Origin: an uncultured Bacteroidales bacterium
Lineage (GTDB): Bacteria; Bacteroidota; Bacteroidia; Bacteroidales; UBA12077
NCBI GenBank assembly: GCA_964606845.1
Contig: CAZSIC010000006.1
Location: forward strand, 1 to 60,281
Reading direction: 5' to 3'
DNA: 60,281 nucleotides
In this document: one piece after another, positions 27,184-30,683 of the stretch
Position numbering within the stretch: the first letter of the stretch is position 1
Layout: each line of letters opens with the position of its first letter
The notes under the pieces: model-generated
What the model was told of the DNA's origin: nothing
The model's database searches: none
What the model saw: only the letters and a program-made list of their open reading frames with translations
Translations under genes and position numbers: made by a program

Positions 27184-28344
27184 TTATTGACTTTGTATAG
27201 AATTATAATAGTCTTCAAAAATTTCTGATGTTAGCGGCAAATAAAATTTTCTGTAAAATTTTTTCGTGCTTTTATAATTTTCTCGTGTTAATGTTGCCAT
27301 CAGGTCGTGGTAACCTTCAAAATAGGCAGTTTTATTATTTATTGCATTAGCCGCAAAGTTTCCGCCAAAGTAATAAAATCTGTAATCGCCATCATGTTCA
27401 ATTACTGCAGGAAATACAGGGCGTATATTATAGCTTCGCAATAGAGAGTCGCCTTTGGCATTTACCATTAAATTAAAACTAGCCAACACATCATTGCGAT
27501 CTCCTGTGTATGTTATATCAAACCAGTTTGGATAGTAAACCTTTTCCGGAACTCCATATTTTTCAACTGTTTCAGGTTTAGAAACAATAAAAGGGATTTT
27601 TTCTGACAAGTGTGTTTCGTGCTCTAATACTGCAATGGTGCCAAATTTATGCACCAGCACAATACCCGAATTTTTAAAAGGCCATTGATGATTGTTTTGC
27701 TCCATATACAGTTTAACAATCCATTCAGGAAAGTAACTATTAGAAGAAGTATCCAGACTCGGGAAATATTTACCGGTCCATCCGCTCCAGTTAATGCCAA
27801 ACATATCTTCTGCCTTTTCACGAATTAATCCACTGGTGGGTGCATTATATAAGTTAAACTCTGTTATGATAAGTTTATTAAGTTCTTTCATTTCTTTTAG
27901 CAAAAGATAATCGTTCTGATTTAACCCGCCATATACTTTCTGGCTAATATCAGCATCGCTTGCTTGGTTTTTATACCACTCATTGTAATAAACTCCGTAA
28001 GTATCGGCGTAATATACCGCATCATAATCTAATGCAGCATCTTTAACATCATGAATACGCAAGCTTTTAAAATCAAATTCCTGTGATTTGGTATCAAGTG
28101 GAAAAAAGCCGTAATAGTCTTTATTTACATTGTATAAACTTCCATCAGGTAGGGTAAATTTATTATGATTTAACAGCCATACCAAAGATTTATGCTCGGT
28201 TCGATCGGTTGTTGGTACCGTTTTATCGAGAATATAAATATTTAAAGGTTTTGCCGGTTTAATATACCAAAATAACCAACTCCCGATAAGGGTTAATAAA
28301 ATGATACCTACAGCAATAATTAAGATTAAAATTTTTTTATTCAT
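27184..28344 (-). CDS. Membrane-anchored hypothetical protein
   Basis: 386-aa ORF, N-terminal TM anchor, ILDKTVP...EH, DYYGF, YADTYGVY, WSGWTGKYF. Confidence 0.8.
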   Translation of the reverse strand: MNKKILILIIAVGIILLTLIGSWLFWYIKPAKPLNIYILDKTVPTTDRTEHKSLVWLLNHNKFTLPDGSLYNVNKDYYGFFPLDTKSQEFDFKSLRIHDVKDAALDYDAVYYADTYGVYYNEWYKNQASDADISQKVYGGLNQNDYLLLKEMKELNKLIITEFNLYNAPTSGLIREKAEDMFGINWSGWTGKYFPSLDTSSNSYFPEWIVKLYMEQNNHQWPFKNSGIVLVHKFGTIAVLEHETHLSEKIPFIVSKPETVEKYGVPEKVYYPNWFDITYTGDRNDVLASFNLMVNAKGDSLLRSYNIRPVFPAVIEHDGDYRFYYFGGNFAANAINNKTAYFEGYHDLMATLTRENYKSTKKFYRKFYLPLTSEIFEDYYNSIQSQ

Positions 28345-28466
28345 CTTTGACAGAATTATTTAGGTTAATTCATATAAAACAAGGGTGCTCTAAGATACAA
28401 AGATTCGGGAAAAATACAAATTATAAATTACTGTTGAATATTTTTAAAGTTAAAAGGGTTAAAAAT

Positions 28467-28597
28467 AAGGTGAGAACGCCATAAGGAGACAGGCACTTTC
28501 GATAATCGAAATTACGGGTTGCTTATGTTTTCCCATCCTGATGCCCCGGAAATAATGTCTCTTTTCCGGTATTTGGATCGATGGTCGATCTCACCTT
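28467..28597 (-). ncRNA. Candidate structured ncRNA with double pseudoknot (family unrecognised)
   Basis: GC-richer island in an AT-rich intergenic region; closing stem AAGGUGAGA/UCUCACCUU, four hairpins and an internal stem, two 6-bp loop-to-3' pairings; TAAATTTG promoter box at 28604-28611. Confidence 0.65.
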
Positions 28598-28603
28598 TTT
28601 AAA

Positions 28604-28611
28604 CAAATTTA
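28604..28611 (-). promoter_or_regulatory. -7 promoter box upstream of the candidate ncRNA
   Basis: TAAATTTG 6 nt before the closing stem; same sequence and similar spacing as upstream of rnpB. Confidence 0.65.
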
Positions 28612-28661
28612 ATCAAAGAAATTAATAAATTAAAATTTTAGATTTTTTTTTAAAAAAACAA

Positions 28662-30683
28662 TTAATTATCAATAAGTTCAAGTGCATCTGCGAAAGATTT
28701 TACAGGCCTTTGGCATACATTATCCCGGCAAACATAAATGGTTAATTTTTCATTAGTATATCGATCCTCTAAAAGTGGCAAATTGCCATCATTACCACCA
28801 GCCAGAATAATATTGGGCATATACTGCCTAAAAAAGTTCTTCCGGGTTTCCTGATGTTTGTTTCCGACAATACATACCTCGTAGGGTTTATGAATAAATT
28901 GTATCATCAAATCAATCCAGTTGCCATTAAAATATGGGTTCCTCAATATTTGTTCTTTCATATTCAGCAGCATTTGGCCTGACTTTTGGATATAATCCGC
29001 TTTTAAAAAATAATGCCCCAGTTTAAATAAATTTTGTGCCATAACAGAATTGGATGAAGGAATAACGTTATCATTTAATTCTTTAGTTCTGGAAATTAAT
29101 TGAGGGTCATTATCAGATGTATAAAAAAACATGCCAGATTCGGCATCATAAAAATGCCGGATAATATACTCTGTAATATTTAATGCAGTATTGATATAAT
29201 ACTCATCAAATTTAGCCTGATAGATAGAAATCAGAGCATCAACCAATAAAACATAATCATCTAAAAAAGCATTAATGGTTGATTTTTTATTCTTATAGTT
29301 GCGAAAAAGGCTAAAATCACTATTGAGTAGATTATTTTCAATGAATTGAAAATTTCTCTCGGCCATTTTTAAAAAATGCTCATCATCAAAAACATTGTAT
29401 GCATCAGCATACGCTTTTAGGGTTAATGCATTCCACGATGTTAAAATTTTATCGTCTAAAGCAGGTTTTACACGTTTTAAGCGATGTTGAAACAGTTTCT
29501 TTTTCGATTGAAGTATAATTTCTTCTAGTTTTTCTAAGGATATGTTGTGCTTGCTGGCAATAACTTTATCAGGTTCTTTTCTATTTAAAATATTTTTGTC
29601 TTCCCAGTTTCCATCAGATGAAATATCAAAATAATCGCAAAAAATGGCTGCATCATCTTTTAATAATTCCTCTACTTCCTTTTTATCCCAAACATAATAT
29701 TTTCCTTCAACACCTTCACTATCAGCATCTAGAGATGAATAAAAACCACCTTCGGGTGAGGTTAATTCTCTTTCTACAAAACGGAGCGTTTCGTATACTA
29801 CTTTTTTATATTCCGGATCAGGATTTAATCGATAAGCTTCTGCGTAAAGACTTACCAGTTGTGCATTATCATAAAGCATTTTTTCAAAATGAGGTACCAG
29901 CCAGTATCTGTCGACCGCATATCGTGCAAAGCCTCCTCCCAGTTGATCGTATATGCCGCCTTTAGCCATTTTTTCTAAAGTTAACATAACCTGCTGTAAT
30001 ATCTCTTTCTCGCCAGAATGATAATAAAAATGCATCAAAAAGAAATAATTAACAGGTAATGGAAACTTAGGAGCCCCAATTGTTCCGCCATTTTCACGGT
30101 CGAATCTTTTTCTGGTATGAATCATTACGTTTAAAAGATCTTCATAAGCGAAATCAGCTTTATCATTTACCTTAGCAATTTTGTCTATGGAAACGATTCC
30201 CTGTTTCAAATCGTTTGCATATTTTTCGAACCGATCTTTATCTACTTCATAACCTCTGGCCAGTTTTTGTAAAATATCTTTCCATTGATCGGGCTTAAAA
30301 TAGGTCCCTCCAAATACTGGCCTCCCATCTGGCAATGCAAAGCAATTTAATGGCCATCCACCACTTCCGGTCATCAATTGCACTGCGTTCATATATATTT
30401 GATCAATATCCGGGCGCTCTTCCCTGTCAACTTTAATACAAACAAAATAATCGTTCATGATTTTTGCAATTTCATCGTTCTCAAACGATTCGCGTTCCAT
30501 TACATGGCACCAGTGACAGGCAGAATAGCCAATACTAACTAATATTAATTTGTTTTCATTTTGTGCTTTTGCTATAGCTTCATTATTCCAGGGATGCCAA
30601 TTAACCGGATTATGGGCGTGTTGCAGTAAATAAGGACTTGTTTCGTTGATTAAGTGGTTACTATATTTTTTATTTTTTTCCAT
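28662..30683 (-). CDS. YyaL/Ssp411 family thioredoxin-domain protein
   Basis: [64 protein letters not shown]. Confidence 0.95.

Follow-up and report, generated by a model that had tools for sequence, protein, structure and literature searches.

Orphan free-standing structured RNAs, such as raiA and OLE, have been brought to light by comparative genomics, and compact pseudoknotted folds are familiar from other functional classes: HDV-like ribozymes are nested double pseudoknots, and aptamers of the SAM-I type contain pseudoknots that connect a loop with a junction. In the IS110 and IS1111 groups of insertion sequences (IS), a structured RNA known as the bridge RNA or seekRNA accompanies a DEDD recombinase; as described in PMC12288879, it lies on the recombinase strand, upstream of the gene in the IS110 group and downstream of it in the IS1111 group. 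Bridge RNAs use internal guide loops, according to PMC11208160, PMC12288879 and section 2.4 of 10.64898/2026.10.21.760802. A different arrangement is described in PMC12288879 for ISPpu9 of Pseudomonas putida, in which Asr9 is an antisense small RNA (sRNA) gene located just upstream of an IS110-family transposase gene (tnp), while Ssr9 (MITEPpu9) is an sRNA module with solo copies that is thought to exploit the transposase for its own spread; both act by base pairing with the 5' untranslated region of tnp and with each other. Here we describe an RNA gene of roughly 135 bases on the minus strand of a 60,281-nucleotide stretch of DNA from an uncultured Bacteroidales bacterium (contig CAZSIC010000006.1 of assembly GCA_964606845.1, the genome being denoted G000), which as a whole is hereafter called the window. 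The gene occupies positions 28597-28467, with 131 nt counted from the first to the last pair of its terminal helix P1. The RNA is real, conserved and structured, and it matches no catalogued family, as far as Rfam 15 and the literature searched extend.

An original prediction, made from the DNA letters of the window, had proposed a novel RNA with a double pseudoknot and its own promoter at this position, and the minus strand from 28611 to 28461 is identical, letter for letter, to the sequence that it quoted. That prediction could not place the RNA in a known family, and the Rfam scan it proposed leaves the RNA equally without a match. Rfam 15, applied to the whole window at gathering scores, returned only RNase P at 104-456 (a full-length bacterial RNase P class A RNA on the minus strand, 202.5 bits); the intergenic region (28300-28700) gave no match at E<=10, and across 16 homolog loci the single match at E<=1 was a tRNA in L043, outside the RNA. 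The family was likewise not found in the literature searched, and the cluster lists of two 2026 language-model preprints (10.64898/2026.10.21.760802 and 10.64898/2026.09.15.751765) could already contain it. G000 holds one full copy of the RNA; the 18 further BLAST matches in this genome are 14-25 nt long, with E values of 0.47 to 5.7, and no partial copy is among them, so that the objection of dispersed copies, as expected of a miniature inverted-repeat transposable element, fails for this genome. The folding energy of the minus strand is -42.8 kcal/mol (z = -3.2) and the plus strand scores slightly better (z = -4.1); folding energy by itself is poor evidence for an RNA.

Two classes of Bacteroidota together supply 22 full-length members of the family: 12 come from the window's own class and the other 10 from a GC-rich one. 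BLAST in 24 genomes of the same genus provided two homologs, and L044, L046/L047, L050 and L043 came from scanning the contigs of genomes and metagenomes for the pattern, which also gave four and two chance matches; two covariance models were then available, R1 built from seven sequences and R2 from eight, with which the window's RNA (28467-28597) scores 166.6 and 164.7 bits, respectively. With G000 included in each case, covariance-model matches occur in 4 of 37 genomes of the genus, in 2 of 151 in an even draw of the order, in 3 of 151 in a draw of the class and in 2 of 151 in a draw of the phylum. The family of G186 yielded full-length matches in 3 of 151 genomes, plus one partial match of 24 bits that was discarded. 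In the other class, the order of G513 had matches in 9 of 151 genomes and the family of G513 in 8 of 68. The score of G050 equals that of L044, and the two were counted as one sequence without a letter-by-letter comparison. Two low-scoring matches, in G359 (24 bits, model positions 59-107) and on the reverse strand of L038 (17 bits), were dropped as chance. A viral origin was considered and rejected, as neither of two pattern matches in viral contigs fits the model even at E<=1; plasmids and phages gave no match at E<=0.001. The RNA family is rare and patchy, and it appears to move between genomes. In G212, two copies lie about 1 kb apart with a PIN-domain gene between them; the upstream one (L064:1501-1638, G212:C32:54863-55000; 37.8 bits), about 1 kb from the good copy, is degenerate, having kept its own TAnnTTTG box and lost the 3' strands of the first pseudoknot and of P1, and it was excluded from all counts.

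The conserved architecture shown by these sequences consists of an interrupted terminal helix, a hairpin P3, and a junction helix PJ enclosing the hairpins P4 and P5, tied together by two pseudoknots, PK1 and PK2*; all of the features below lie on the minus strand. The terminal helix pairs the ends of the RNA (AAGGUGAGA/UCUCACCUU), as had been predicted, and it covaries: its outer part, P1a (28589-28597 with 28467-28475), has nine pairs, eight of them with changes on both sides, and 89.4% of cells paired. It continues with CG (28586-28587, partner 28477-28478), in which both pairs show double-sided change (95.2% paired), and, past a bulged A28585, with P1b, formed by CCAU (28581-28584) and AUGG (28479-28482). 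The third pair of P1b is AU in 14, GC in 3 and UA in 2 of the 21 aligned members and the fourth is UA in 7 and CG in 13, and compensated states such as CCGU/ACGG, CCUU/AAGG, CCUC/GAGG and CCAC/GUGG are found. Between P1 and P3, junction J1/3 contributes AUCC (28575-28578), the 5' strand of PK2*, whose partner GGAU (28535-28538) lies between PJ and P4; it is followed by a conserved single-stranded tail, AAAUA (28570-28574), which reads AAAUA, AAGUA, AGGUA or a near variant in the 21 rows. P3 (CCGGAAA/UUUCCGG, 28546-28569) has double-sided change in all seven pairs, and its loop bears GAGACA (28556-28561), the 5' strand of PK1, which pairs with UGUCUC (28486-28491) immediately 3' of PJ, with double-sided change in four of six pairs. 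PJ itself (GGCAU, 28541-28545, with GUGCC, 28492-28496) closes the three-way junction in the way originally proposed and is paired in 21 of 21 members (100% of cells); one of its pairs is A-U in 12 members and G-C in 9, and its terminal U-G is retained in 19 of 21. P4 (GGG/CCC, 28516-28534) shows double-sided change in four of four pairs and carries a 13-nt loop with the letters CAUAAG, which varies in size and sequence among members, and P5 (UUUCGA-UUA-UCGAAA, 28497-28511) shows it in four of six pairs (93.6% paired). The order of strands is P1, PK2*, P3, PK1, P3', PJ, PK2*', P4, P5, PJ', PK1', P1'. L079:523-690 (G696:C98) has an additional GC-rich hairpin of about 30 nt that separates the junction helix from the PK2* strand, so the fold accommodates an insertion at this point.

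Covariation across the family carries this model. In a 21-row model alignment comprising the nested helices and PK1 (43 pairs), 88.8% of cells hold a standard pair, compared with a mean of 71.8% in shuffled controls (n=500); 33 of the 43 pairs are changed on both sides (shuffled mean 22.3), and the covariation score is 0.486 (shuffled mean 0.185). None of the 500 shuffles was as high in any of the three measures, and sliding the 3' partners by 1-3 columns lowered pairing to 39-48%. PK1 is retained in all 21 members, with at least four contiguous pairs in each and at least five in 20 of them, and through 15 distinct strand pairs; a strand-swap control was uninformative for it, because many members have similar strands. 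For PK2*, both strands were anchored on their invariant neighbours, since an indel column spoils the column-based count on alignment A5; counted in this way, 81 of 84 cells are paired, the first pair being AU in 7, GC in 9, CG in 4 and UA in 1, and when the 10 distinct strand combinations were permuted, the observed pairing was reached in 0 of 10000 trials. L138 was omitted from A5 and L079 from A6. RNAalifold, applied to a plain MAFFT alignment, independently recovers parts of P1, P3 and PJ (13 pairs, 8 of them with double changes).

Compared with the fold first drawn for this RNA, PK1, P3, P4 and P5 hold, and the search for covarying homologs that accompanied it as a proposal has delivered them, but two elements have to be replaced. 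The 5' hairpin GAUCGA-CCA-UCGAUC is present in the window's copy and is not conserved (69% of cells paired in seven homologs); its halves belong instead to P1b, which supplants part of it, and to PK2*. The contiguous 12-nt segment UGUCUC-CUUAUG had been assigned to two hairpin loops. The first of these pairings is PK1, and the second, CAUAAG/CUUAUG, is perfect in the window and is not maintained in the family, AUCC/GGAU taking its place as the second covarying pseudoknot helix. As a conserved pseudoknot CAUAAG/CUUAUG was rejected: it shows no double change in seven sequences, the large P4 loop is empty in 10 of the 21 rows of the alignment, and changes in its 3' strand are compensated in P1b and not in the P4 loop. 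In the nine members whose loop is long, 4-6 of the 6 positions can still pair in this way, and the pairing could be an alternative that competes with P1b.

The strand and the ends of the transcript are indicated by several features. G-U wobbles had been said to favour the minus strand, and in the family 56 G-U pairs face 12 A-C oppositions (37 pairs in 21 sequences); in the GC-rich clade alone, with the invariant U-G excluded, the counts are 13 and 4. The promoter box claimed 6 nt upstream is indeed there: TAAATTTG at 28611-28604 stands 6 nt ahead of the first P1 pair and fits TAnnTTTG, the Bacteroides -7 box consensus. An exact TAnnTTTG box lies 4-7 nt ahead of P1 in 6 of the 12 members of the window's class, against a background of 0.76 per kb per strand in the window. 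At the other end, P1 is followed by AUUUUU (28466-28461), with a U-run at 28465-28461 that resembles a terminator; 12 of 12 members of this class carry a T-run of 3-8 within 24 nt surrounding the 3' end of P1, whereas the run is weak or absent in most GC-rich members; in one of the latter (L077) a canonical terminator hairpin follows the RNA on the same strand. The window's copy thus combines a -7 box near its 5' end with a 3' U-run, as expected of an independent transcription unit, and transcription probably begins near P1 from its own box and ends at the U-run. In a salt-lake metatranscriptome (run X1), a 345-nt contig of a relative matches 28463-28712 at 90-95% identity and continues into unlike sequence downstream of the match; to judge from this contig, a relative carrying the RNA is present in that library. 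Three other metatranscriptome runs gave 35-nt pieces over the AT-rich promoter region, or nothing.

We consider it probable (about 0.6) that the locus is a free-standing gene for a structured RNA of some 135 nt, of a family outside Rfam, which acts in trans by binding. The RNA would be transcribed from its own -7 box promoter up to the U-run after P1, and its paired ends would make it a stable, discrete molecule. The invariant junction nucleotides, locked by the two pseudoknots, may then form a specific binding pocket or surface, which is the least certain step, and through it the RNA may bind a protein or a small ligand in trans and not by means of an exposed antisense seed. The family seems to pass from genome to genome, and one sublineage resides in or beside IS110-type elements. 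Several points weigh against this reading. That a ligand or a protein is bound is something we infer and nothing more. Just half of the members in the window's class have the exact -7 box, which is lacking in all nine GC-rich members scanned, and the sole match in an RNA library, the 345-nt contig, spans the end of the upstream gene and could be DNA. In single-sequence shuffles PK1 is individually weak (4 to 779 of 2000 shuffles equal it), the unfitted MAFFT alignment yields just 13 pairs, alignments A4 and A5 were fitted to the proposed model, so that their pair counts are biased towards it, and the relatedness of the sequences inflates the shuffle controls. Finally, the IS110 association of 4 of the 22 loci suggests an element-related role for at least part of the family.

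This recombinase-linked role is the main rival to a trans-acting binding RNA. It holds that the RNA is a partner, a regulator or a hitch-hiking module of IS110-family (DEDD recombinase) elements, situated in their long left end and antisense, and that the window's copy is an orphan or domesticated module left by transfer; taken jointly, we regard these two statements as a serious but distinctly minority possibility. The link was not foreseen in the original prediction and comes from the other class. In 4 of the 10 GC-rich loci (L075, L078, L079 and L080, of four genera), there is an IS110-family recombinase gene with PF01548 and PF02371 that begins 69-103 nt upstream and is head to head with the RNA in all four. 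A 12-nt motif, ATAGAAATCGTT, follows the RNA after 8-16 nt in these loci and in L076, and the homology of two IS110-linked loci stops 4 nt past it, which delimits a putative left end of 214-236 nt, within the range of lengths given for IS110-group elements in PMC11208160. The motif occurs 1-10 times per genome, compared with 0-1 times for its reversed control. In G696 and G710, what precedes many of the extra copies is just a 3'-terminal piece of the RNA, 45-70 nt long, whose 5' end varies from copy to copy and whose surroundings are unrelated, a pattern reminiscent of the remains of element ends. The patchy distribution of the RNA, the presence of other members among toxin-antitoxin and transposase genes, and the precedent of ISPpu9 (PMC12288879), where one sRNA is antisense and lies upstream of tnp and another forms a module that is mobilised separately, point in the same direction.

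Against this stand the majority of the members: 18 of the 22 loci, including 12 of 12 in the window's class, have no recombinase gene in the flanking 0.5-3 kb that were examined to either side, and the motif is missing from 17 of 22. G000 itself, an assembly that is 96% complete and of a kind from which IS elements are often lost, has no PF01548 match, nor any partial copy of the RNA, and the RNA in the window has a DUF255 gene and a 386-aa gene for neighbours, neither a DEDD recombinase gene nor, in the manner of Asr9, an IS110-family tnp immediately downstream of an antisense RNA. In the recombinase-free clade to which the window belongs the fold is nevertheless kept by compensatory change, for example U-A versus C-G at one P1 pair. 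The RNA lies on the strand opposite to that reported for bridge RNAs, and large internal guide loops are missing from its fold, in which the junction strands are paired with one another. When the RNA and spacer were compared with the terminus and flank for guide-like complementarity, 127-260 of 300 shuffles did as well, in a test on five loci that has low power for short split guides. The element boundaries are putative, and the RNA could mark an insertion target instead. An extended form of this alternative takes the RNA for a new class that works with IS110-family DEDD recombinases unlike bridge RNAs, antisense in the left end, with perhaps a part as structural cofactor, expression switch or self-mobilising module, and supposes that hosts have retained the recombinase-free copies, the window's among them, for some new role, trans-acting or catalytic; we hold it to be speculative and rather improbable.

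Some further observations concern these elements. Two of the four recombinase genes that neighbour the RNA are defective or truncated at contig ends; these two, in L082 (G710:C51:1755-3050) and L083/L085 (G648:C74), look broken, one with a TAA within the match and one split into two overlapping frames. In L094 (G710:C196) the motif stands at locus positions 401 and 1119, as tandem copies 718 nt apart, and there and in similar loci the sequence after each motif copy resembles the start of a small open reading frame. Dispersed 3' fragments are also seen in L092, L095, L099, L100 and L102, several of them at contig starts; such fragments may be remnants of IS110 left ends, sites of recombination or an array of the cassette type. 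In L099 (the end of G696:C80), L100 (the start of C39) and L102 (the start of C77), the contigs break at one further repeat that starts right after the motif, which suggests that another repeated element has inserted at the motif site in G696. L084 (G696:C61) and L079 (G696:C98) hold recombinase variants of 90% identity, one of which is seen beside the RNA; the L084 contig starts 48 nt ahead of the recombinase start codon, and contig breaks of this kind halt the analysis of boundaries. A second copy of ATAGAAATCGTT, sought as a sub-terminal inverted repeat with up to two mismatches, was absent from L081 and L082. An integron core site, suggested by motif copies that continue into GTTAGGC or GTTATGC, was rejected, since the adjoining gene is an IS110-type recombinase and not a tyrosine integrase, and no inverted partner was seen for the motif.

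Several ribozyme classes present themselves as compact double-pseudoknot cores whose junction nucleotides are invariant and whose gene context is not fixed, and the RNA might accordingly represent a new catalytic class, self-cleaving or of another kind. The nested core, the variable gene context, the two copies 1 kb apart in G212 and the association with mobile DNA would all suit such an RNA. We nevertheless think it unlikely: no Rfam ribozyme model was matched, the order of helix strands is unlike that of HDV-like and twister folds, and no candidate cleavage site can be named. Moreover, the promoter box and the U-run bracket P1 exactly, which fits an intact, stable RNA better than one that cuts itself.

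Still less probable, and in our estimate very much so, is that the functional strand is the opposite one and that a bridge-type RNA has been read backwards. In the four IS-linked loci the region does sit where a sense-strand bridge RNA would be expected from PMC12288879 and PMC11208160, and the opposite strand of G000 shows a U-run beyond P1 as well and folds with the better z-score. These features are outweighed by the excess of G-U pairs over A-C oppositions, both overall and within the GC-rich clade, by the retention of the U-G pair that closes PJ, by the -7 boxes, U-runs and the L077 terminator hairpin, all of which belong to the strand on which the RNA is read here, and by the absence of the word pseudoknot from the main text of PMC11208160.

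The gene neighbourhood bears on a further alternative that was also entertained in the original prediction, namely that the RNA is a cis-acting riboswitch or leader controlling the 386-aa gene that starts at 28344 (27184-28344, minus strand). The RNA shares the strand of this gene and precedes it by about 120 nt, and its aptamer-like fold is followed by a U-run. The 386-aa protein, which has a hydrophobic N-terminal stretch and no Pfam family, is the product of a conserved uncharacterised gene found in 33 of the 37 genomes of the genus, compared with 4 of 37 for the RNA. In L044 (4046-5635, minus strand) and L050, a 529-aa sensor kinase gene (SBP_bac_3, HisKA and HATPase_c) intervenes between the RNA and the 386-aa gene, which indicates that this chromosomal spot is variable. 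A gene for a DUF255 thioredoxin-like protein precedes the RNA in five close relatives. Elsewhere the surroundings differ: HicA/HicB, ParE and a DDE transposase in G021; a nucleotidyl-transferase and a T9SS-sorted protein in L043; GcpE and DUF1801 in G302; PIN and a weak Bro-N match in G212; BipA in G462; an SNF2 helicase in G348; and in G174 an acyltransferase-family protein, together with a convergent C1 peptidase gene that overlaps the 3' end of the RNA. The downstream context, whose conservation had been put forward as a check, is consequently not shared, the genes being unrelated in G021, L043, L062, L064, L065, L066 and the GC-rich loci. In G051 and G007 the two flanking genes are those of the window, but they are separated by just 110 and 104 nt and no RNA lies between them, and about 95 nt before the 386-aa gene are conserved in the RNA-less G051; in the window this upstream region (28345-28440, minus strand) lies outside the RNA and presumably contains the gene's own promoter. 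These empty sites, with the upstream region retained, make the RNA unit a presence/absence block of about 200 nt and not a leader, and, together with the differing neighbours, they identify a free-standing gene. Closer empty sites were sought in G012, where the contig ends inside the kinase gene, and in G013 and G049, which are rearranged. Of the two roles first envisaged, that of a standalone structured RNA stands, and the cis-leader, already largely refuted, is hardly tenable.

That there is no functional RNA at all, and that the locus is a chance fold, the terminator of the upstream gene or a decaying repeat, could draw on the modest z-score, which is better on the wrong strand, and on several P1 mismatches in L046 and L044, but it is already contradicted by covariation, with 22 homologs spread over two classes, double-sided change in 33 of 43 pairs, both pseudoknots maintained and a single copy in the window's own genome, and we give it next to no weight.

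It is rare for a new bacterial RNA fold of this size to combine invariant junction nucleotides with two pseudoknots that covary, and past RNAs of such a kind have often been ribozymes, ligand sensors or RNA-protein machines. With 22 members, a corrected fold, a strand and likely ends, the RNA is ready for direct testing, and it comes from environmental Bacteroidota, whose small-RNA biology has barely been explored. Its patchy spread and, in one lineage, its proximity to IS110-type recombinase genes also raise the question of whether there is a second kind of RNA that these RNA-guided enzymes employ or carry along.

Among known systems, the HDV-like ribozymes and SAM-I type aptamers resemble the RNA in that one hairpin loop is paired to a strand of the junction close to the closing helix, with another pseudoknot nested in the arrangement, and they differ from it in strand order, in that no Rfam model of theirs matches it, and in that it has no cis gene context. 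With the raiA and OLE type it shares an independent gene, strong covariation, conserved junction nucleotides and a function that cannot be deduced; it has no sequence or model similarity to them, and it is much rarer, patchier and so far confined to Bacteroidota. The comparison with ISPpu9, made by description and not by sequence, is one of position and behaviour: the RNA takes an Asr9-like place in 4 of 22 loci and has solo copies like Ssr9, but it belongs to another phylum, and it has a conserved tertiary fold that is kept in genomes without a detectable IS110 gene. From the bridge RNAs it is set apart by its strand, opposite to that of the recombinase in all four linked loci, by a terminal helix and two intramolecular pseudoknots in place of two internal guide loops, and by the 18 of 22 members with no recombinase nearby. 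What it has in common with them is that it can be a structured non-coding RNA of 130-180 nt adjoining a DEDD recombinase gene, and that in 4 of the 22 loci it fills the putative long left end of such an element.

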